The position numbers and the translations under genes are program-made. A stretch of DNA of 63,798 nucleotides, counting the filler, from Actinomycetota bacterium (GTDB lineage Bacteria; Actinomycetota; Acidimicrobiia; Spongiisociales; UBA4744), in assembly GCA_013152275.1 (NCBI GenBank). It is 6 parts of 6 records of this genome, joined end to end, with 100 filler letters (N's around TTAATTAATTAA, not from the genome) between each part and the next. Parts side by side here need not be neighbours in the genome. Positions count along the whole stretch, not along the records: positions 12,673 to 23,675 come from JAADGS010000044.1; 5 more parts are not named here. One strand, 5' to 3'. Below the pieces are notes generated by a model. That model was not told the DNA's origin and ran no database searches. It was given only the letters and a program-made list of their open reading frames with translations. Of this stretch, positions 12,673 to 23,675 are shown piece after piece (the stretch's first letter is position 1; each line of letters opens with the position of its first letter).

Positions 12673-12889
12673 CATCGACCCATTATCGACCTGCCCGACC
12701 GGGAGCGTATGTCCGGTGTGGGCTCAAGGGGTCAGCACAACGCTTCAGCGAGACAGAGCGTCTCCATTCCAGCACACCCAGCCAGATCTGGATGGGGCAG
12801 ACGGCTCCTGTGTTACGGTGCGCGAAGCATGTAGTTATCGGAACGCCCCCGGACTTGTCCCGCACGTGAACTCCCCAGGAGGTTCCCTC

Positions 12890-13206
12890 TTGTCCCTACA
12901 TGCTTCCCTCGACCTAACAGGCCATGTGGCGCTCGTCACAGGCGCAAACCACGGCATCGGCGCGGCGACAGCTTGTCGCATCGCCGAACGTGGCGCCTCG
13001 GTAGTGATCACCTAGCTACCGATCGGGGATGCTCCCGATCCAGGTATCCCCGACACCTACCGCAACAACCGTGCCCAAGATGCTGACGCTGTGGTCCAGC
13101 GATCTCTGCCAGCGGCGGAACGGTGGTGGCGATAGAGGCCGATCTCAGCGATGGCGAAACAATCAGCCGTCTGTTCGATGCAGCCGAAGCTGACCTCGCT
13201 CGTTGA
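12890..13206 (+). pseudogene. Short-chain dehydrogenase/reductase remnant
   Basis: LDLTGHVALVTGANHGIGAATA Rossmann motif, in-frame TAG at 13013-13015, later frameshift to AIEADLSDGETISRLFDAAE, then truncated. Confidence 0.75.
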
Positions 13207-13283
13207 AAACCCCCAGATCTGCTCACTGGAATCCCTCGCCACCAGGTCTTGTCGTGTCATATCCGATAAGAGATACTGCGAGT

Positions 13284-13787
13284 GTGTCGATAGTGAGAGA
13301 TCTTCGCGAATCCGCTGAATTGACTCAGGTCGAGTTGGCTGAACGGGCGGGTACGTCGCAGCCGGCGATCGCCGCGTACGAGTCGGATCGCAAGAGCCCG
13401 ACGTTGCGGACCCTGAGGCGGCTCGCGCAGGCTGCCGGCCGGGAAGTGGTGGTTTCGTTCGCTCCGCCGTTGACGAGGGAGGAACGTCGAAGTCTGGCGT
13501 TGCATCGGGCGATCGCCCGCAAGTTGCGGGAGGTACCCGACGAGGTGCTGGTCCGGGCTCGGCGTAATCTCGCTCGCATGATGGAGCGGCATCCGGCTGC
13601 CCGGGGACTGCTCGAGGAGTGGGCCGTGATCCTGGAGAGGCCCGTCGACGAGATCGTCGAGATCTTGACGGATCCTCGGCCCCATGCCCGTGAGCTGCGC
13701 CACGTCACTCCGTTTGCCCGGGTGTTGACCGCCGCCGAACGGACCCGCGTATACGAGGAGTTCGCTCGAAGCGAGGCGCTGCGTTGA
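13284..13787 (+). CDS. XRE-type HTH protein with C-terminal helical domain (putative antitoxin)
   Basis: LRESAELTQVELAERAGTSQPAIAAYESDRKSPTLRTL HTH_3; translationally coupled to downstream nucleotidyltransferase-like ORF. Confidence 0.8.
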   Translation: MSIVRDLRESAELTQVELAERAGTSQPAIAAYESDRKSPTLRTLRRLAQAAGREVVVSFAPPLTREERRSLALHRAIARKLREVPDEVLVRARRNLARMMERHPAARGLLEEWAVILERPVDEIVEILTDPRPHARELRHVTPFARVLTAAERTRVYEEFARSEALR

Positions 13788-14089
13788 CCAAAGACGAGTT
13801 CGATCATGCGATCCGGGCGGCAGGTGCGATGCTCGGTGTGCCTGAGATTCCGGTGATCGGCAGCCAGGCGGTGCACGGATCCGTTTCCGGGGACCTGCCT
13901 GAGGAGGCGCTACGGTCGGTAGGGGTCGATGTTGCCGTGTTTGGTGATGTGGACGGGGCCGAGGCCGATCTTCTCGACGGGTCGATTGGCGAAGCGTCGA
14001 TCTTTCACGAGTCGTTCGGGGTCCCCTCGCATCGTGGTCGAGGGGAGACGCCGTACCGGGTCAGGGCGTTGGCTGTCGTGTGGGCGTAA
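13784..14089 (+). pseudogene. Truncated nucleotidyltransferase-like (DUF6036-like) putative toxin
   Basis: HAIRAAG...VIGSQAVHG...DVAV...DGSIGE.S.FHESFG N-terminal motif; sequence loses family character after ~14020 and overlaps a convergent gene. Confidence 0.6.
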
Positions 14090-14537
14090 GTTCGATGACG
14101 GGGATGGCGCGGCTGGTGCGTTGTCGATAGCGCTCAAAGGTTGGGTAGATGGCGACGAGCGCCGGCCATATCCGTTTCGCCTCGTCGGCCGGGAGCACTC
14201 GGGCGGTGTGGGGGATTGTCTCGCCGCGAATGTCGACCTCGACTTGCGGATGGGCGACGAGGTTGCGGTACCAGTGGGGCACGGTGTCGCTGCCGGCGAA
14301 CGACGCGGCGACGTAGCGGTTGCCGTCGTGCTCGGCGTAGTAGAGAGGCGTCGAACGGGGTTCGCCGCTGGTCCGGCCGCGGGTGGTCAGTATGAGGGTG
14401 TCGACGCCGAGGGGCCCGGCTCCGTGAAAGAGGCGATAGAGGGCGAGGTGGAGTCGTCCTCCGGTTCGTACCACGCCAGGACGGAACCAGATCGTCAGGA
14501 AATTGGCCAGGTATTTTGTGAGGTTGCGCATCTGCAA
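14061..14537 (-). CDS. Deazaflavin (F420)-dependent nitroreductase family protein
   Basis: LILTTRGRTSGEPRSTPL, AASFAG...PHWYRNLVAHP.V, YRQRTSRAIPVIEL motifs. Confidence 0.9.
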   Translation of the reverse strand: MQMRNLTKYLANFLTIWFRPGVVRTGGRLHLALYRLFHGAGPLGVDTLILTTRGRTSGEPRSTPLYYAEHDGNRYVAASFAGSDTVPHWYRNLVAHPQVEVDIRGETIPHTARVLPADEAKRIWPALVAIYPTFERYRQRTSRAIPVIELTPTRQPTP

Positions 14538-14556
14538 TCCGCTCCTATCGGTCGGG

Positions 14557-14895
14557 CTAGGACTCTCCGAGGGGTGCTTGGCCGGTGCCGAGCAGCTCGT
14601 CGGCGAGTCTTCGTACGGCGCGGCGACCCTCCTGGAGGGCCTCGTTCCCGCGTGGAGAGATCCGATAGACCCGCCGAGCCTTACCGTTCATGGTCTGGGG
14701 TTCCGAGGTGACGAGCCCTTCGGCTTCCATCTGGTGCAAGGTGGGGTAGAGCTTGCCGGGGCTGATGTCGTAGCCGTGTTCGGCGAGTTCGCGGCTTAGC
14801 CAGGCGCCGTGCACCGGGCCTTCGGCGGCGTGGTGGAGGATGTGGAGGCGTACCGCCCCACGAACAAACTCTCTGATGGTGCGCTGGCTCTCCAC
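14557..14895 (-). CDS. PadR family transcriptional regulator
   Basis: LHILHHA...HG..LSREL...ISPGKLYPTLHQMEAEGLV...RRVYRIS; GTG start at 14895. Confidence 0.88.
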   Translation of the reverse strand: MESQRTIREFVRGAVRLHILHHAAEGPVHGAWLSRELAEHGYDISPGKLYPTLHQMEAEGLVTSEPQTMNGKARRVYRISPRGNEALQEGRRAVRRLADELLGTGQAPLGES

Positions 14896-14908
14896 GGCGT
14901 CCCAAGCA

Positions 14909-14932
14909 ATATCGTAAACCGATATCAGTATA
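14909..14932 (-). promoter_or_regulatory. Putative -10 box (TATACT) and PadR operator ATATCG-N5-CGATAT
   Basis: Perfect 6-bp inverted repeat 14909-14925 lying between TATACT (14927-14932, minus strand) and the padR start. Confidence 0.6.
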
Positions 14933-15121
14933 CGATGATGCTGTCGAGCAGGCAAGAAACTCCGTGGACTCCAAGGCGAACAGGCCTGACATCCGTTTCT
15001 CTTCGCCATCTACGGCGTTCGGCTGCGCGATGCGAAGCTCGCAACAAGGTCTTGCGTCCTCGGTTGGGCCTCTGCCGCCGATCAGATGGTGGAACATGGC
15101 GAGGTGTCGTAGGCTCGGGTG

Positions 15122-16855
15122 ATGACGAGTCTCGGTGAGGCTTTCAATGTTCGGGCGATCACTGATCTGGCCGGCGCGCGGGTCTATGCGCGTGGGGTTG
15201 CCTATCACGCCGATGGGCGTGTCGAGCCCGACGCGAGAAGCGATCAGCGGTTGGAAGCGACAGTGCGTGGCTCGGTTCCCTATGCCGTGGCACTGTGGGT
15301 CGATCGTGACAAGGCGGGATGGTCGTGCAGTTGCCCGGCCGCCGAGGACGGTTCGTTCTGCAAGCACTGTGTCGCGGTTGCATTGCTGTTCGCCCCTCGT
15401 TTGGATCCCGGGGCCGGCGCAGTGCCAGGACCGGTCGAATCGGCACACGGACCGGATGTTTCGTCTCACGTCGAGGGACTGTCGCGCGAGCGGCTGGTCG
15501 AGCTCGTGCTTGAGCAGTGTGAGACCGACTGGCAGCTTCGAGAGCGAATGGTTGCCGAGGCGAGGGCCGCTCGTGGCGATGGTCCTGATGTCGGGTCGTG
15601 GCGACGTCGCATCGATTCCGTGTTCGCTCCCTATGGCGATTTCGTCGGCTATCGCGAGGCGAAAGGATGGGCCTCGGACGTCTTTGATGTGATCGACGGG
15701 CTTGGGGATCTCGCGAATGCCGGACATGGTGATGAGGTGATCGTGTTGGCCGAGCATGCGCATCGTTGCGCCGATGCTGCGATCAGGTACGTTGACGATT
15801 CCGATGGTTGGCTCACCGATATCGAGGAGCGGCTGAGCGACCTGCATCTGAGCGCGTGCGAGGCTGTGCGTCCTGACCCTGTTGGTCTGGCGCGTCGTCT
15901 CGTCGATCTGGAATTGACGTCTGAACTTGACGGATTCCATCGCGCGGCAGCCACGTACGCGGACCTGCTCGGCGAGACTGGACTCGCGGAGTATCGGCGG
16001 ATCCTGGAACCGCGATGGGAAGCGGTCAAAGATCAGACAGATCGATGGTCAGGCGATCGGTTCTCTGTCGAGCAGGCCATGATCGGTGTTGCGTTGGGTT
16101 CGGGTGACCCCGACGAGTTGATCGAGGTACGGAGTGGAGATCTCCGAACACCTGATGGCTATCACGAGATTGCCGGGGTGCTGGCTGGGGCCGGTAGGGT
16201 CGAAGAGGCGGTCGAGTGGGCCCGGCGGGGATTGGCCGAGTACGCGGATCGCACCTGGCAGCTATCGGGGCTGCGCGATTTCCTTTCGGGGATCCTTCGA
16301 TCGCAGGGTGAGCACGCGCAGGCGGTCGGCTTGTATTGGGAAGGTTTCGAGACCGCGCCGTCTGTGTCGAGCTACCGCCGGCTCCTTTCTGAGGCGAGTC
16401 CAGACGCCGAGTCGTGGTCGGAACGCTGCCTCGAGACACTCAGGGAGCGCGTGGCCGAAGCGCGCCCGGGTGACGATGTCCGCCGGTCGCATGCCGTGCC
16501 TCGTCCCTCCGTGGCACTCGTCGAGATCCTCATGTACGAAGGTGACATCGAGGGTGCCTGGACGATCGCCGCCGAGTATGGGTGCGACGACAGGACGCGG
16601 CTGACGCTGGCTCGTGCCCGCGAGGCGACACATCCGCTCGATTCGATCTCGGTGTACGAACGCGAAGTCTTCGCGCTCATCGACCGGAAGAAGAACCGCG
16701 CCTACCAGGCCGCTGTCGACTTGTTGGATCGCATCCGTGTCCTGGCCGACGGTGCGGCGCAGCCCGAACGGTTCTCCGTGCTCCTCGAACGGGTTCGTAC
16801 CGAGCACCGCGCAAAGCGGAACCTCAAGGCCCTTCTTGATCGCAAGGGCTGGTGA
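15122..16855 (+). CDS. SWIM zinc-finger protein with C-terminal helical repeat region
   Basis: CSCPAAEDGSFCKH = CxCx9CxH SWIM motif after the ARG..Y...G.V N-terminus. Confidence 0.85.
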   Translation: MTSLGEAFNVRAITDLAGARVYARGVAYHADGRVEPDARSDQRLEATVRGSVPYAVALWVDRDKAGWSCSCPAAEDGSFCKHCVAVALLFAPRLDPGAGAVPGPVESAHGPDVSSHVEGLSRERLVELVLEQCETDWQLRERMVAEARAARGDGPDVGSWRRRIDSVFAPYGDFVGYREAKGWASDVFDVIDGLGDLANAGHGDEVIVLAEHAHRCADAAIRYVDDSDGWLTDIEERLSDLHLSACEAVRPDPVGLARRLVDLELTSELDGFHRAAATYADLLGETGLAEYRRILEPRWEAVKDQTDRWSGDRFSVEQAMIGVALGSGDPDELIEVRSGDLRTPDGYHEIAGVLAGAGRVEEAVEWARRGLAEYADRTWQLSGLRDFLSGILRSQGEHAQAVGLYWEGFETAPSVSSYRRLLSEASPDAESWSERCLETLRERVAEARPGDDVRRSHAVPRPSVALVEILMYEGDIEGAWTIAAEYGCDDRTRLTLARAREATHPLDSISVYEREVFALIDRKKNRAYQAAVDLLDRIRVLADGAAQPERFSVLLERVRTEHRAKRNLKALLDRKGW

Positions 16856-16935
16856 GTAGTTTCTGGCCACACCCGTGCTTGGGGTCTGTCAGTCCTGCTG
16901 CACGGACATGGAGGCTTGGCCACGGGAGTGCGTGG

Positions 16936-16954
16936 ACGTACATTGGCCGTACGT
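16936..16954. promoter_or_regulatory. Putative TA operator palindrome ACGTAC-N7-GTACGT
   Basis: Perfect inverted repeat 14 bp upstream of the DUF1778 antitoxin start. Confidence 0.55.
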
Positions 16955-16968
16955 AGTGTGAGGTTCGG

Positions 16969-17256
16969 GTGGCTACTGAAGCGAAGCGGAGACGTAGGGA
17001 ACGTCTCGAAGTCAGGACAGCGCCCGAGGATCGGGCGCTTGTCGATAGCGTCGTGGCGGCTTACGGGACGGATCTGACAGAGTTCGTTGTCACGAACCTG
17101 ACGGTGGCCGCGCGGCGGGCGTTGGCCGATCGATCCGAGTTTGTCCTCGACTCGGATTCCCGGCAGGCGTGGGAGAAGGTCAACAGGCGTCGAGCTCGCG
17201 ATCTGCCCGGGTTGCGTGAGCTGATGCAGCGTCCGTCTCCGTTCGTTGACGAGTGA
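16969..17256 (+). CDS. DUF1778 (TacA-like RHH) antitoxin
   Basis: RRERLEVRT...DRAL...LTEFV...ARRALADRSEFVLD...LRELMQRPSPF pattern; coupled to a GNAT-toxin N-terminus. Confidence 0.85.
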   Translation: MATEAKRRRRERLEVRTAPEDRALVDSVVAAYGTDLTEFVVTNLTVAARRALADRSEFVLDSDSRQAWEKVNRRRARDLPGLRELMQRPSPFVDE

Positions 17257-17381
17257 CGGACCGGCATCGGCCACCGAGGCTCATCGAACCCGGCGACGAT
17301 GTCGACGGGTTCCAATGCCGACCTGATGACGAACAAACCCGGTGGTTGCGCCACCACGCCCGTCAGGCGAGTGCCACAGGT
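17253..17381 (+). pseudogene. N-terminal fragment of a TacT-like GNAT toxin, interrupted
   Basis: PRLIEPGDDVDGFQC....QTRWLRHHARQASATG resembles the GNAT toxin N-terminus (F.CG...L..WL...A); then runs into an inverted integrase fragment. Confidence 0.65.
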
Positions 17382-17567
17382 GAGCGACCAATCCTTGTCG
17401 TTGCGGCCGTTCACCTCCTTGGCGAGACGCGCCGCCAACTCTTCGGCGTCGTCCCTGCTGGAGCCGCCCGGGTGCCAGGTGCGGCGTTCCCGTCCGGTGA
17501 CCGGGCCGAGCCCTTCGTAGACGACTGCATACCAGCGGTCACCCTTCGTTGCGATACAGTCCTTCAC
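17375..17567 (-). mobile_element. Remnant of tyrosine integrase N-terminal arm-binding domain
   Basis: KGDRWYAVVYEGLGPVTGRERRTWHPGGSSRDDAEELAARL, typical actinobacterial integrase N-terminus; no catalytic domain follows. Confidence 0.65.
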
Positions 17568-17729
17568 GGTTGTCTCCGTTCCGGGTTGCCGACGTTCGGG
17601 AACCCGGTAGAAGAATCCGGGACCCGGCCCCGAAGCGCACCAGGCAATCCGAAGGCTCCGAGGTGGTCGGACTCACACGAAACAGTCTCCGGTAGCCCCG
17701 GACCGGTTCAGAGCTAGCGTAGGCACCGG

Positions 17730-18263
17730 ATGGACCAGGGATCCTCAATCGCGAAGTGTCGTGGCGCGGGAGAGCCTCTTCGAGTCTCGCGTTTTCGGCC
17801 TGAGCAGGCGGTTGATGTCGCAGGGTGGCAGTACCCGCCGCCCTACGACATGTACTCCAGCACCGAGGCCCTCTCCGGTCGACTTCTGGTTGATGAGGGA
17901 GATGGCCTCGGCTATTTCGTGTTGACGTTGCTCGGATCTGATGAGGCGCTCGGCTTCTGCTGCTACGGGCCCGAGGCGCGTGTTATCAACGAACCAGAAC
18001 CGCTTCCCGGGACACTCGATGTTGGTGGCGGTCTACGGCCGGATGCAGTTGGGCGAGGGATTGCGTCCAGGTACATGCCGAGCGTGTTGGAACACGCGGC
18101 CCGGCTCCACCACCCAAAGTGGTTTCGTGTTGCAGTCGCAGCATTCAACGAACGCTCTGTGGCGCTGTGTACGACTTCGGGGTTCGTGAGATCGAGTTCC
18201 TTCGCCGGCCCCGACGAGAGGGAGTTCCTGGAATTGTATCGCACCAGGGTCAGCTTCCAATGA
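17730..18263 (+). CDS. GNAT family N-acetyltransferase
   Basis: WQYPPPYDMY; DVGGGLRPDAVGRGIA acetyl-CoA motif; VAAFNERS...GF. Confidence 0.85.
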   Translation: MDQGSSIAKCRGAGEPLRVSRFRPEQAVDVAGWQYPPPYDMYSSTEALSGRLLVDEGDGLGYFVLTLLGSDEALGFCCYGPEARVINEPEPLPGTLDVGGGLRPDAVGRGIASRYMPSVLEHAARLHHPKWFRVAVAAFNERSVALCTTSGFVRSSSFAGPDEREFLELYRTRVSFQ

Positions 18264-18428
18264 ACGGCGCAAGTCTCCCGGGATCTCAGCGTTCAATCTG
18301 GGCATTCTGTGAGCTTCGTCCTGGCTGCCCAGTTCGGTATGGCTATCAAGAGGCGTATTCGACGGAGGTGCGTGCACCGTGGTGGTGTACGAAGGCCTGT
18401 GGGCCCTTCCCTTAGAGTGAGAGCGCTG

Positions 18429-19241
18429 ATGGACGCATGGACGGCTGCGAATCGCGCGAATTGGGACGATCGGGTACCGATCCACAGAGCTTCGGCCTTC
18501 TACGACGTGGAGGGTTGGCTGGCGGAGAGACCAGGACCTCGGCCGTGGGAGCTGGAGGTCCTGGGAGATGTGGCCGGGCTCGACCTGGTTCATCTGCAAT
18601 GCCACTTCGGTCTCGATACGTTGGCCTTCGCTGACGCCGGCGCTCGCGTCACGGGGGTCGACTTCTCCGGCGCCGCGATCGAGCTCGCCCGAGAGCTGGC
18701 GACGTCGGCCGGCCTGGCGGACAGGGCACGCTTTGTGGAAGCCGATGCGCTCACGGCAGCAGAAGTCCTCGCCCCGGAGACCTTTGATGTCGTCTATGTG
18801 AGCCTCGGGTCGCTGTGCTGGCTGCCGAGCGTGACCGCGTGGGCAGGTGAGGTCGCCGGCCTCATTCGCCCCGGTGGCCGCCTCTACCTACACGACGCCC
18901 ATCCGCTGGCATGGGCCATGGCCGAGGGCGACCTACGGGTCGAACAGTCCTATTTCGAGGAGCCGGAGCCCCTGGCGGTGGACAGCGACGTCACCTACAC
19001 CGACGGCGACGACCGTCTGATCCATGCTCGGCACTACGAGTGGAATCACTCGATCGGCGAGACCGTGGAGGCGGTCATCGGCGCCGGGCTGAGGATCGAG
19101 CGGTTGGTCGAACACGACTGGACGGTGTGGCGTCGCTTCCCTTGGCTGCAAGCCACCTCCGACGGTCGATGGGTGATACAGCCGGGCCGACCCCGGGTGC
19201 CGCTGACCTTCACCCTTCTCGCCACTCGCGGGGACGGTTAG
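18429..19241 (+). CDS. Class I SAM-dependent methyltransferase
   Basis: NRANWDDRVPIH, LVHLQCHFGLDT, VTGVDFSGAAI, FDVVY motifs. Confidence 0.9.
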   Translation: MDAWTAANRANWDDRVPIHRASAFYDVEGWLAERPGPRPWELEVLGDVAGLDLVHLQCHFGLDTLAFADAGARVTGVDFSGAAIELARELATSAGLADRARFVEADALTAAEVLAPETFDVVYVSLGSLCWLPSVTAWAGEVAGLIRPGGRLYLHDAHPLAWAMAEGDLRVEQSYFEEPEPLAVDSDVTYTDGDDRLIHARHYEWNHSIGETVEAVIGAGLRIERLVEHDWTVWRRFPWLQATSDGRWVIQPGRPRVPLTFTLLATRGDG

Positions 19242-19383
19242 CCGAGGCGGGTCGTTCCGTCGGTTGGCCGCGAGCGGAGGAGACGTCTCGATGTTGAAGA
19301 CAGACCGAGGCGTCCTCCCGCAGAGGCACGATGGACGGTTGTTGTTGGGAGCACTCACGTGTTCTCGGCTCGCTTCCACCGGA

Positions 19384-19587
19384 TCTCCATCGCGCGTCCG
19401 CCGCGCGAGAGTGGGATCAGACGGGAAACAAGGAGAAACGTTGAGAGGCGAAGACCCGGTTCTGCCGGGCGTTTCTCGCATTTCCCCCGGTCAGTGAAAC
19501 TCGCAGAATCGCTCACAACCGGAAGGTCGCGGGTTCAAATTCCGCCCCCGCTACGAACGCAAATCCCTGTGAACACAGGGGTTTGCG
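19384..19587 (+). repeat. att-like direct repeat copy 1: ~127-bp arm, degenerate 3' half of tRNA-fMet (19511-19554), hairpin (19558-19587)
   Basis: GCTCACAACCGGAAGGTCGCGGGTTCAAATTCCGCCCCCGCTAC resembles tRNA-fMet 3' half; homologous to 22857-23060. Confidence 0.85.
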
Positions 19588-20099
19588 GCGTTCTCCGCTT
19601 TGATCGGGTGGTCTCGGTTGTCCCTCCTGAAGTCCGACGGTCGGCGAAGCGCCAATTCTCTCATGGTCGAGCTTTCTGACGGAAGGTGGCTGGTTCGCCA
19701 TATGGCCGCTCTTCGAGCGGCAACGAGTACTGCGAGTATTTCGCCTGGCCGGATCGAAGGTGGGTTCAGAATGCTCCGGCAACGGCGCAGGGCGAGCGTT
19801 GTGTCTTGTTGCATGAACCGAACCGGGTCAATCCCACCAGTGGGCTTGGCGTCTGGGTTGGCGGGTGGCTACTCCGGCGAGGAGGGCGTTGAGGCCGTAT
19901 TCGAATTGGTCGTTGGCGACGAGTTGTGTCATCTCCGATCAGGTCGGCGTAGCTGCAGCCGCTCCTGGCCGGCATCTGAAGATCATCTTCTTCAACGATC
20001 CGTGCAGCCGCGCACTCTCGTACGTGAGCTACTGGAACAACCACGGGGAGCATCTCCATGTACGGTATTGTCAGGTCTACTATCCGAAGTCGAGTTCAC

Positions 20100-21311
20100 A
20101 TGATTGCCAGGCCTTCGTTGTGGGTGTCTGTGGTTGTGTCGGCTCTTGTGTTGGTGACTGCCGGGTGTGGCGAGGCTTTGGTGCCGCAGGACTCGGTCGG
20201 CGGGTCGGCGTCGGTTACGGCACAGACGCCCTCTTCTCCGACTGTTGAGGCTACAACGTCATCGTTGGCGACCCTCCCGAGCACTCCCTCAGTCTCGGTG
20301 GTGGAATCCGACTCGGTGCGGCCGGTGCAGATGCTGCCGGCAGAGTCGATGTCGGCCGGAGTTGAGCCGGGCCCGCTGGTTGGAGCGCAGGCCGTCAGGG
20401 GCGAAGCGGCCCTCGAGGACGGTACGGTGAGTATCCCGGTTGCGTTCCTGATCGACGCGGATGGGTCGTATCGGGTGGAGGTAGGGACCGTTCGCAACGA
20501 ACTGTTCGCCTACGACGCGTCGACGATGACTGCCCAGATGTGGTCCGACGACGTTGGAGGTGCCATCGTCGACGGGGTCGCACCGTTCGGGCCGTTTGAG
20601 TTCGGGAGCCCGCTGCACACGTATCTTCGTATGCAGTACCGGGCGGCCAGTTTCCTTGTCGACATGTCTCCCATGATGTTCTCTGACGTCTCGGCACTGG
20701 AGGCGATTCTTCCCGCCGTGGATGCGGACGGTTCCGAAACGCCCGGCGGGCCGGTGCGGTTCGTGGTGGACGCCACCACACGTATGCCGCTGCTGGTGGA
20801 CGACGGTGTGGTGCGATTCAGCGTGCGTGCGCTCGTTTACATGGACAGCGCCGACCGGAGTCTCTACAGCCTGGGACTGGACTCTGCGGCTACGTCGCTC
20901 GCATTCCACGTCTCGCACGGCTTCACCCCGATTGATACCGAAACCGCATCGAGCGTGTTTCCCGGTGCCGTCTCGAGCCGGCTCCCAGGAGGTTACGTTC
21001 TGAGTGCGGCATATGCCGATGCGCAGGGGCGAACCGTCCTCGTATACCGCCGGAGAGGGTTCGACACCGTCACGATCGCGTCGGCTCCGGTCGATCTTGC
21101 AGACATCTACGACGGGGACCTATACCCTCCATCAGGGCAGGCGGAAGCCACGGACATCCCGAACGTGACTGTGGTCACCGGCCCACCCGGGCACATCCTC
21201 ATGCGCGCAGGCAACTCGGTTATCACCATCAACGGAACAGAACGGAACCTGATGCTCGAGACCGCCAAGCTCATCGCCGACACCCACCAGCGAACCGACC
21301 CGCAGAGCTGA
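20100..21311 (+). CDS. Hypothetical lipoprotein
   Basis: Signal peptide with lipobox VTAGC, S/T/P-rich linker, long ORF. Confidence 0.7.
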   Translation: MIARPSLWVSVVVSALVLVTAGCGEALVPQDSVGGSASVTAQTPSSPTVEATTSSLATLPSTPSVSVVESDSVRPVQMLPAESMSAGVEPGPLVGAQAVRGEAALEDGTVSIPVAFLIDADGSYRVEVGTVRNELFAYDASTMTAQMWSDDVGGAIVDGVAPFGPFEFGSPLHTYLRMQYRAASFLVDMSPMMFSDVSALEAILPAVDADGSETPGGPVRFVVDATTRMPLLVDDGVVRFSVRALVYMDSADRSLYSLGLDSAATSLAFHVSHGFTPIDTETASSVFPGAVSSRLPGGYVLSAAYADAQGRTVLVYRRRGFDTVTIASAPVDLADIYDGDLYPPSGQAEATDIPNVTVVTGPPGHILMRAGNSVITINGTERNLMLETAKLIADTHQRTDPQS

Positions 21312-21922
21312 TCACGCCCAGGTGGGGCAACCTCCCCGGTTCCCACACCTAAACCACGCGCAAAGGGCGAACACCAGTACCGGCGGGTTGCGTGAGGCCC
21401 GGTATCTCAGGGATGGCTACTGTGCTGGAAGTTCCACTCTCGAGAGCTGCTTGAACGCGACCTGGTACCCGTGTCGATGGGATGAATGCAGCAATACGCA
21501 CCTGTCGATGTACGACTCGGGGAGTGACACACTGCATGTGGCCTTGCGCTCCAGAAGTCAATGGGACGGGGGCGTGACGACTCGAAGCTGCCGGTGGGGT
21601 AGTTACGGGCCTCCATGTACTTGCTGCCTCCACGACGCAGACGTGCACGAAGGACTGATGGACACGCTCGATCCCAACGGAGACGGATCTCGAACCCCAC
21701 TGGCCGTTGCCATCCTTTCTCTTACGACGAGCAGCATCATGCGAGCAGCATGGCTGCGTTCCACGACCGGTTATGACATCGAGATCGTCAAGACGGTACG
21801 GACGTCGGAGAACGCCCGCTATTCGACGGTCTACGAGTCGACCTACGGCTGTACAAGGGGACGAGCCTGCAGGTGCACGAGTGCATCGGCGGTGGCAACT
21901 ACTATCGATCGACGTGGGGACC

Positions 21923-22690
21923 GTGACGAGCCTGACCGGTAGACGCCTGGTGCTGCTGCTGGCGGGGCTGAGCTTTCTGGCCGGGTGTATGCAGGCGGAT
22001 TCCGGTACTTCGACGGTTCCGGCGACGGCGACCAGTGCCGTCTTGGAGACGACGACATCGAGTACCACCGTTGTCCACACGGCGGAAACGCAGCCCGGGT
22101 CCCTCGTGTCGTGTCCCGGTCCGATCGAGGGTTCGGCCGAGGTCCGCGGCGATCTCGACGGTGACGGTGCGGAGGAGACCGTCCTGGTCGAGCGGCCACC
22201 GGGTGGTGAGACGGTGATTCGGGTGTGTGGTTCGCGTCTGCGAGTCGCTCCATATCACGTCGGTGACGTCAACAAGCCGGTCGAGGTGTATGGCATCGAC
22301 ATCGAAGGTGACGGCATAACGGAGCTGCTCGTCGGCGCCCCAACTGGTGCGGGGCCGTTCGCGGGGACGGTCCTGCGCTTGGAAGGTGACGAGCTGGTCG
22401 ACACGAGACTGTCGTTGACGGTGATCTTCGCGGGACGGGAAGGAAGTAGCTTTGGGTGCGTCGATGTGGACGGCGATGGTGTACGTGAGCTGGTGTCGTA
22501 TACCTATGAGTTCGACGGCGACACGGTCGATTCGTCGACCACGATGACGTGGGCCCGGACGGTCCTGCTCGGCCCTCTCACCGGCACTACGACAACCGGC
22601 ACGTTCGACGTTGGGGAGCAGCGCGAGGATGTCGAGGTTCTCATGGCGGGTACCTGCGGCGACGACGTCGACATCAGAGCGTACCCGTGA
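21923..22690 (+). CDS. Lipoprotein with FG-GAP/DxDGDG calcium-binding-like motifs
   Basis: Lipobox FLAGC; GDLDGDG, DIEGDG, DVDGDG motifs. Confidence 0.75.
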   Translation: MTSLTGRRLVLLLAGLSFLAGCMQADSGTSTVPATATSAVLETTTSSTTVVHTAETQPGSLVSCPGPIEGSAEVRGDLDGDGAEETVLVERPPGGETVIRVCGSRLRVAPYHVGDVNKPVEVYGIDIEGDGITELLVGAPTGAGPFAGTVLRLEGDELVDTRLSLTVIFAGREGSSFGCVDVDGDGVRELVSYTYEFDGDTVDSSTTMTWARTVLLGPLTGTTTTGTFDVGEQREDVEVLMAGTCGDDVDIRAYP

Positions 22691-22856
22691 CAGATGAGAA
22701 CGGCCGGACTGGTGTTCCCCCGGTTTGGCAGAGTCGGAATGTTTGAATCGGTGGGGCCTGAGATCCGGCTGCAACCACTTCTGATTCCCGAGTCGACGCT
22801 GCCGGCAGGAGCGTCTCGGGGGAGGGCGACCGGCTGCCCCCCGGACATCTCGAGCT

Positions 22857-23060
22857 TCTCCATCGCGTCTCCACCGCGCGAGAGAGTGGGATGGCGCGGG
22901 AAACAGCGAGAGACGTTGAGAAGCGAGAACCTGGTCAGAACAGGCGTTTCGCGGGTTTCCCCAGATCGGTGAGCACCATGTTGGGCTGATAAGCCGAAGG
23001 TCGCGGGTTCAAACCCTGCCCCCGCTACGAACGAAAGCCCTTCCACCACAAGGGTTTTCG
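22857..23060 (+). repeat. att-like direct repeat copy 2: arm, degenerate 3' half of tRNA-fMet (22985-23028), hairpin (23032-23060)
   Basis: GCTGATAAGCCGAAGGTCGCGGGTTCAAACCCTGCCCCCGCTAC; same spacing from TCTCCATCGCG as copy 1. Confidence 0.85.
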
Positions 23061-23241
23061 ACTTTTCTCCGATCTCCACGAGCGCCCTCATGCGGCTCCA
23101 TCGCGCGGCGGGGACAAGTCGTCGAGATCCAGACCGCGTGGGTGTCGTCGTCGATGTGTGTGATGACGGAGGAAGCTGCCCTCTGCGGGGTTCGCGTGGC
23201 CGACGAAATGCGGTTCCTTGCTCCCGTAGTGTGCGGGGGCG

Positions 23242-23675
23242 ATGAATCCTCCTCGGATGATCACCACCGAACGACTGGTCCTGCGTCCGCCGGCTACGTC
23301 GGACCGCGATGCCGTGTTCGCGTACGCGTCGGATTCCCAGGTGATGCAGTACCTCTCGCGGGTCCCGACGACCGATCCGGCGGACTCGGCCGCCTTCCTG
23401 CAACGGTGCTTGCGCGTGTGGGAGAGCGGCGAGGCCTATGTGTGGGCGATCACGCTGCCCGATGGGTCGCTGATCGGGATGATCGAGGGGCAGCCCTCCA
23501 AGCACGGCTTCGAGCTCAGCTACGGGCTGAACCGCGTCGCATGGGGGAACGGATACATGACCGAGGCGCTGCAGGCGATTGTCGGCTGGGCGCTCAGCGA
23601 ACCTGAGGTGTATCGGGTGTGGGCGTACGTCAATGTCGGGAACGTGGTGTCGCAGCGGGTTCTCGAGAAGGCCGG
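23242..23675 (+). CDS. RimJ/RimL-type GNAT acetyltransferase (3' truncated by contig end)
   Basis: ITTERLVLRP, WGNGYMTEAL, NVVSQRVLEKA. Confidence 0.88.

Follow-up and report, generated by a model that had tools for sequence, protein, structure and literature searches.

A segment between two tRNA-fMet half repeats, probably a fused remnant in a tandem-accretion island of an Acidimicrobiia genome

Overview

The stretch of DNA analysed here (the window, at its full length of 63,798 nucleotides) comes from an uncultured Actinomycetota bacterium of the class Acidimicrobiia (GenBank assembly GCA_013152275.1; henceforth, genome G000) and contains a 3.3-kb segment bounded by two direct repeats, each of which carries the 3' half of tRNA-fMet. 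With a probability of about 0.75, this segment is a fused, decayed and chimeric remnant of the cis-mobilizable type, located in a tandem-accretion island at tRNA-fMet. The mechanism is a known way of accumulating accessory genes, and not a new integron-like system.

The window consists of six contigs joined by N linkers (NNN-TTAATTAATTAA-NNN), and contigs that adjoin across a linker are not genomic neighbours. Both repeat units lie on contig C2 (window 12673-23675), which measures only 11 kb. Actually, the G000 assembly is fragmented into 100 contigs and breaks at tRNA-fMet-half repeats. For comparison, we used (i) the congeners G001 and G002, together with other relatives; and (ii) contigs of three DNA runs from one hydrothermal-vent study, in which the stretch is present and among which its source may be. 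These run contigs drop rare forms, and depth in the runs is not readable as copy number.

Anatomy of the two junctions

The initial annotation described two direct repeat units at 19384-19587 and 22857-23060, in which a tRNA half begins 127 and 128 bp past the arm start, respectively. It also reported two differently mutated anticodon loops (CTCACAA at junction 1 and CTGATAA at junction 2) and unlike hairpins after the two cores. All these details were confirmed in the sequence, as was the nature of the halves: 44 of 47 and 45 of 49 bases are identical to the intact tRNA-fMet of contig C3 in the same genome. The units are 73.8% identical over 210 columns (BLASTN against the genome, E 3e-29) and their cores are 3,474 bp apart. 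Their interpretation as arm-core-arm junctions of tandem integration at tRNA-fMet is supported by the comparison of arms and of the whole array.

Arm types were defined by the 11-12-bp direct repeats present at the junctions: A (TCCATCGCGCG), B (TTCTAACGG), C (TTCTACCG), D (TGTCAAAC) and E (CTGAAGCCA), besides rarer types. Junction 1, on the plus strand like junction 2, is composed of (i) a type-A right arm (19384..19510), aligned with the A right arms of 24 relatives, with the 11-bp direct repeat TCCATCGCGCG (its second copy mutated) and a GGGAAACA..ACGTTGAGA block; (ii) a core (19511..19557) that corresponds to the tRNA-fMet 3' half from the anticodon loop on; and (iii) a terminator-like hairpin with a type-E left arm (19558..19713), which shows 78% identity over 203 nt (core included) to C21:6381-6582 and was aligned with five other E left arms. 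Of the two CTGAAGCCA repeats of this left arm, one is lost and the remaining one is mutated. Junction 2 is composed of (i) a type-A right arm (22857..22982), assigned by the A-arm alignment and the arm tree, with both repeats mutated; (ii) a core (22983..23031); and (iii) a hairpin with a type-A left arm (23032..23110), aligned with 23 other A left arms, in which one repeat is left. Each of the two left arms is, then, short of one repeat. Since junction 1 reads A|E and junction 2 reads A|A, the left arm of the 3.3-kb segment is of type E and its right arm of type A. An arm tree (42 arms, many branches weak) places the right arm of junction 2 on a long branch apart from that of junction 1; hence, the two units are not a recent duplication.

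Both junctions are decayed. Right arms and cores show 11 (junction 1) and 13 (junction 2) mismatches at 101 conserved columns, versus a median of 3 for 24 A junctions outside G000, only two of which reach 11, in a comparison that leans to intact arms because 13 of those 24 were found by a perfect-repeat pattern and all 24 helped define the consensus. Likewise, an intact CTCATAA loop is kept by 60 of the 65 internal junctions typed in other genomes and by none of the four in G000. ARAGORN found no tRNA on contig C2.

Arm types and their integrases

At least five arm types occur at tRNA-fMet in the relatives, and each has been met next to an integrase of its own, namely, type A (L076, L182, L243 and G024), type B (G001), type C (G003), type D (G056) and type E (G040). 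Intact integrases of types A to D are present among the relatives, whereas that of type E is partial. The four A integrases are 76-85% identical to one another, while identity between arm types is 25-47%. Three integrases scanned in full are phage-type (Pfam), and four integrases scored 37-43 bits with the IntI model (TIGR02249), far below its cut-off of 265. Titled records with the A arm belong mostly to Acidimicrobiia or Actinomycetota, and the A-arm pattern had 0 matches in viral contigs. At the junctions, identity to the tRNA sets in at the anticodon loop or immediately ahead of it; according to a passage of PMC8371274, this loop is the usual 7-bp overlap.

Beyond tRNA-fMet, the A arm repeat is common to integrases at tRNA-Pro, Ile, Ala, Val, Gly, Glu, Leu, Thr and Arg (L051-L292), and small integrase-less A-to-A elements of 3.1 kb (L054) and 5.5 kb (L175) occur at tRNA-Pro. 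The A integrase of G024 is carried by a 69-kb A-to-A element (G024:C148 37291-106646), in which a relaxase-like gene, conjugation-like genes and defence-like clusters are candidates named by eye from translations. The type-C element is much smaller: about 1.5 kb, with the integrase only, between inverted TTCTACCG arms (e.g., G003:C47, L019, 3266-4600); together with its right core, it was seen only in G178:C20 (L331), near 1404. The idea that the C integrase lacks a right arm of its own, raised by the absence of direct-orientation C motifs at typed right arms, was dropped, as G178:C20 has an inverted C right arm plus core. A single origin of hybrids with a C left and an A right arm was unsupported in the arm tree (6 changes; shuffled mean 4.8).

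The tRNA-fMet array in G000

The initial annotation proposed to look for further copies and for an intact tRNA-fMet and an integrase at the array end. More tRNA-fMet halves are indeed present on C21 (two), C14, C36, C92 and C63, and both head components were located at the end of C3, beside a TTCTACCG (C-type) arm: the tRNA is intact, but the tyrosine integrase is frameshifted. Contigs C3 and C21 overlap by 66 nt, exactly, and so do C2 and C63, by 91 nt. Between them, the end of C21 matches C2 positions 47-98 (52 nt, 96%), from which we infer a chain C3-C21-C2-C63; the C21/C2 join is only inferred because this short match is also found on C6. In the chained contigs, the tRNA halves of C21, C2 and C63 are all on the plus strand, the two junctions of C21 read A|A and E|E, and every integrase copy, of type C, is broken (on C3; on C21, in three pieces; and at window 17361-17617). 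Searched for A and E integrases, G000 yielded neither, the best matches being 44.6% (A) and 42.8% (E).

Variable array content was anticipated in the initial annotation and is seen among relatives: G000, G001 and G002 have two backbones in common, the one preceding the tRNA (85-89% for the two congeners) and that of C63 (87-91%), on contigs that in the congeners carry att junctions, but they do not share the array, which in G001 and G002 begins with other arm types than in G000. The site thus presents the marks of tandem accretion, namely, a head tRNA, chimeric junctions, integrases for the same site (intact or decayed) and variable content in a fixed backbone.

Other contigs of G000 show related arrangements. 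On C36 (L003; 1111-1311 and 4817-5022), tRNA-fMet halves are interrupted by an insert of ~150-190 nt, which separates their variable loop from their T arm; the same 150-190-nt insert is found in G001:C114, G001:C94, G042:C6, L116, L129 and L306, and G042 has two such insert-split units in tandem behind the tRNA. Contig C14 (L002; 16-450, 1136-1513 and 7496-7781) holds a second att array, at tRNA-Asn, where a right arm of type A, its fMet core decayed, lies 180 nt behind the tRNA; G001:C94 carries an A arm, a partial fMet core and an Asn-type arm. The GGGAAACA..GAGAA block of the A arm, which is perhaps a site for an excisionase or a host factor, also appears at a tRNA-Arg half on C51 (L006; 600-800) and in an orphan arm on C73 (L007; 2900-3000). 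Finally, C92 (L005; 102-2847), unjoined to the main array, has AbiE-like pairs ahead of a right arm of type B, together with a decayed fMet core.

Spread across relatives

The repeat unit was matched in 44 of the 61 genomes searched. In the whole order, the tRNA-fMet 3'-half pattern is present in 219 of 261 genomes, with at least two copies in 90 and at least three in 31 (hand count; these tallies take in the unpublished genomes G023, G034, G195, G249, G279 and G404). A set of 137 junctions (one of them counted twice, as L118 and G117) and 64 core-to-core segments was typed from G000, 16 unit-matching genomes, 21 contigs with several cores and 23 of 242 A-pattern loci; 58 segments of at least 700 bp were kept and 6 shorter ones dropped. 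The counts that follow are descriptions and not tests, since the genomes share ancestry and the feature itself was the criterion of choice. An integrase match is absent from 41 segments (median 5.7 kb), 7 contain a fragment and 10 a full-length match. Both arms could be typed in 24 segments (9 matched and 15 mismatched), and 34 are untyped. Segments are mostly multigene and range from <1 to 74 kb.

Proposed origin and mobility of the 3.3-kb segment

In the proposed course of events, several elements of unrelated origin would have entered the single tRNA-fMet gene successively, every one of them with a phage-type tyrosine integrase of its own that cuts at the tRNA-fMet anticodon loop. Each insertion would restore the gene and displace older elements outward, leaving a chimeric junction, whose make-up (the newer element's right arm, the tRNA 3' half and the older element's left arm) is shown by the comparison of sequences. 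Deletions, some of them at insertion sequence (IS) ends, may then have taken out integrases and internal junctions and brought together an E-type left end and an A-type right end from two elements, giving rise to the 3.3-kb integrase-less remnant. A deletion scar does lie within the segment: an orphan IS left end (22709..22766, plus strand), just ahead of the second arm, with 80-86% matches in six genomes. Its counterpart in G099 is followed by an HTH_Tnp_1 transposase, and we take the IS to be IS3-like.

The initial annotation saw in the segment a small non-autonomous cassette mobilized in trans, a view that the junctions do not support. Instead of matched, intact att ends, both ends are present but mutated and belong to different integrase systems (E at the left and A at the right), and no cognate integrase was found in the genome. 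The two 7-bp overlaps, as assembled, differ (CTCACAA vs CTGATAA); part of the text of PMC2817482 states that the recombination overlap must be identical. Searches of the segment with Pfam and with integrases gave no integrase match between the cores, in agreement with a cis-mobilizable element without integration or transfer genes. No in-register empty site or circle was found in the contigs of the three runs; since such contigs drop rare forms, this does not speak against their existence. A joint in run X2 (19557->22989) was rejected as an empty site: it skips 3,431 nt, its short side has 25 letters and it is 43 nt out of register. A helper integrase could arrive from outside G000. The segment is probably immobile alone and could move solely as the passenger of a larger composite excised in cis.

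Alternative explanations

An unlikely alternative regards the array as stacked non-autonomous cassettes under active shuffling, which have working att ends and are excised and re-inserted in trans or in cis by rare incoming integrases (those of A-type integrative conjugative elements or of the small C-type integrase-only element), with exchangeable arms and the window segment as an ageing cassette. It draws on the frequency of segments without an integrase match (41 of 58, with the median size given above) and on several observations that also weigh against accretion and decay as the preferred reading: (i) junctions in the relatives are mostly well kept in spite of that frequency; (ii) at least 13 of 60 relatives have A right arms, versus one of 60 with an A integrase (80% or more); (iii) four integrase-less segments of 2.2, 2.3, 5.7 and 12 kb (G047, G192, G043 and G117) have matched arms and intact loops; and (iv) in all eight typed segments with a C left arm, the right core of the C element is gone and an A arm forms the other end, and those A arms are not one clade, which speaks against a purely passive picture. 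The well-kept junctions and the excess of A arms go beyond what is expected from simple decay. Further points against the preferred reading are the presence on C6 of the short match behind the C21/C2 join and the base C at 22988 in run X1 (35 of 35 depth, 2 contigs), which makes the junction 2 loop intact there, so that the G of the assembly may be strain-specific. Mismatched arms are no bar to excision either: a Streptococcus agalactiae composite excises between very different att sites (PMC5704250, in part), and cis-mobilization is, therefore, still conceivable for the 3.3-kb segment.

Against shuffling, reciprocal sharing at 80% or more was found for only one pair among the 58, in first position in G033 and third in G131; the shared 8-kb block begins exactly at the left core (88.7% identical), as shuffling would have it, but the right ends differ and plain accretion likewise predicts position shifts. 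The remaining shared cargo is nested and does not end at the cores, such as an AbiE-like pair which stands alone between B arms in G047 and lies within a larger segment in G001. Besides, segments are mostly multigene and of very different sizes, and the one in the window, with its damaged and mismatched ends, matches none of the other 57. This sharing pattern is that of accretion followed by deletion. A related proposal, quite unlikely in our judgement, is that in this order the tRNA-fMet site serves as a gene-capture platform: the 1.5-kb type-C element would land at the head, lose its right core and excise through to the next intact core, so that integrase-less segments whose A-type ends are well preserved are taken up and re-dealt as cassettes from genome to genome, of which the window would contain an aged example.

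Local duplication of one attR region, mis-assembly or mis-binning could be suspected in an assembly of 100 contigs that breaks at these very repeats. Nevertheless, the units are only 74% identical, have unlike left arms and lie apart in the arm tree; one X1 contig covers 19627-22957 with 11 differences, with flanking contigs of like depth; and the arm-core-arm layout recurs in the single-contig genomes G047 and G043, all of which makes such an origin very improbable. There is as little to recommend a transcribed structured RNA or small repeat element containing a tRNA half: the fixed spacing from arm to tRNA half and the hairpin after each core would suit it, but an Rfam scan of contig C2 gave no match at E up to 1, and the arm repeat is also found across the core and beside integrases at many tRNAs, as arm-type binding sites are.

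Comparison with known systems

Integrons hold a row of accessory genes between recombination sites, with an integrase at the head. The array described here is similar in these three respects, but the integron-like array put forward in the initial annotation finds no backing in its components: the integrases are phage-type and not IntI, the sites are tRNA cores with direct-repeat arms and not attC (no attC model was run), and the segments are multigene, with unlike arms.

Closer parallels exist. According to parts of PMC5704250 (which cites Pavlovic 2004 and Bellanger 2011 on this matter), integrative elements decay to cis-mobilizable elements (CIMEs), accrete in tandem and form chimeric attI sites. 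As in CIMEs, there is stacking at the 3' end of a gene, decayed members keep att sites without integration genes, and chimeric junctions join elements of distant integrases (PMC5704250, in part). Here, by contrast, at least five arm/integrase types share one tRNA, and the ends of the segment come from different elements and are mutated, which makes it a fused remnant and not a clean CIME. In a section of PMC3146451, 15 tandem ssrA islands of Dehalococcoides without an integration module are proposed to be cis-mobilizable or fixed; they, too, are parted by repeats of the target gene 3' end, but they involve a serine recombinase and a tmRNA target instead of tyrosine integrases, anticodon-loop cores and long arms. 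Successive integrations of Prochlorococcus tycheposons leave partial tRNAs and fragmented integrases, and newcomers push older elements into the island (excerpts of bioRxiv 10.1101/2020.12.28.424599), much as here; the differences are that no replication module was seen in or beside the 3.3-kb segment and that the phylum is another one. Tandem arrays of SXT/R391 are unstable, and hybrids arise (PMC5812530, in part). Among the literature matches listed, there was no account of such tRNA-fMet arrays in Acidimicrobiia.

Cargo and neighbouring genes

Two lipoprotein genes and no recombinase had been noted between the units, and this was corroborated. Both genes are on the plus strand, with lipobox-like signals. 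Lipoprotein 1 (20100..21311, 403 aa) has a weak likeness to LolA/RseB-like DUF4367 proteins and belongs to no Pfam or NCBIfam family. Its Atlas features stand at 0.93, with the family on 35-65% of members; only two distant relatives were found, and among 8,000 scored candidates there was no homologue except itself. Lipoprotein 2 (21914..22690) contains FG-GAP-like repeats (Pfam FG-GAP_3, E 1.4e-6) and has homologues with 65-66% DNA identity in G002:C8 and G238:C43, that is, in 2 of 401 genomes (2 candidates scored per genome). Between them lies a Cys-rich open frame of 206 aa (21322..21942, plus strand), a putative gene with no Pfam match which was not chosen by the gene model. With the same two candidates per genome, no copy of the 3.3-kb cargo as a block was found in the 400 other genomes.

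Outside the units, contig C2 carries further cargo of the island. On the plus strand, an HTH antitoxin-like gene (Pfam HTH_3) with a truncated partner (13293..14089) lies in a region that shares 832 nt, at 94.5% identity, with a 1.4-kb segment of G001:C84; that segment is bounded by cores, but the region in the window is not. The HTH gene and its partner are followed by a TacA-like antitoxin (Pfam TacA1) with the cut start of a GNAT toxin (16969..17380, plus strand), a pair that also precedes an A right arm in G027. On the minus strand, 17361..17720 comprises a 5' fragment of a type-C tyrosine integrase, an inverted TTCTACCG arm and most of a C right arm, the core being missing; this part of C2 can be aligned to G178:C20, where the C right arm and its core are complete. 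The integrase fragment itself (17361-17617), 1.8 kb upstream of junction 1, is 78-80% identical to the integrase starts of C21. The flanking GNAT and methyltransferase genes noted in the initial annotation were verified with Pfam: they lie at 17730..19241 (plus strand), as cargo of the segment whose right end is junction 1, and another GNAT gene (23257..23675, plus strand; Pfam) continues into C63 through the exact 91-nt overlap. Elsewhere in the window, the very start of contig C13 (49615-49775) is a 79-nt inverted repeat (96%, 3-nt spacer) that may be an assembly artefact.

Significance

The tRNA-fMet gene is a busy integration hotspot in Acidimicrobiia-type genomes, where five or more integrase systems share one tRNA. 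The arms amount to a readable code that assigns each junction to its parent elements and aids annotation, and the repeats of the hotspot explain why assemblies break at this site. If the gene-capture proposal were true, genes would be exchanged here along an integron-like route anchored at a tRNA, in a group for which few mobile elements have been described.

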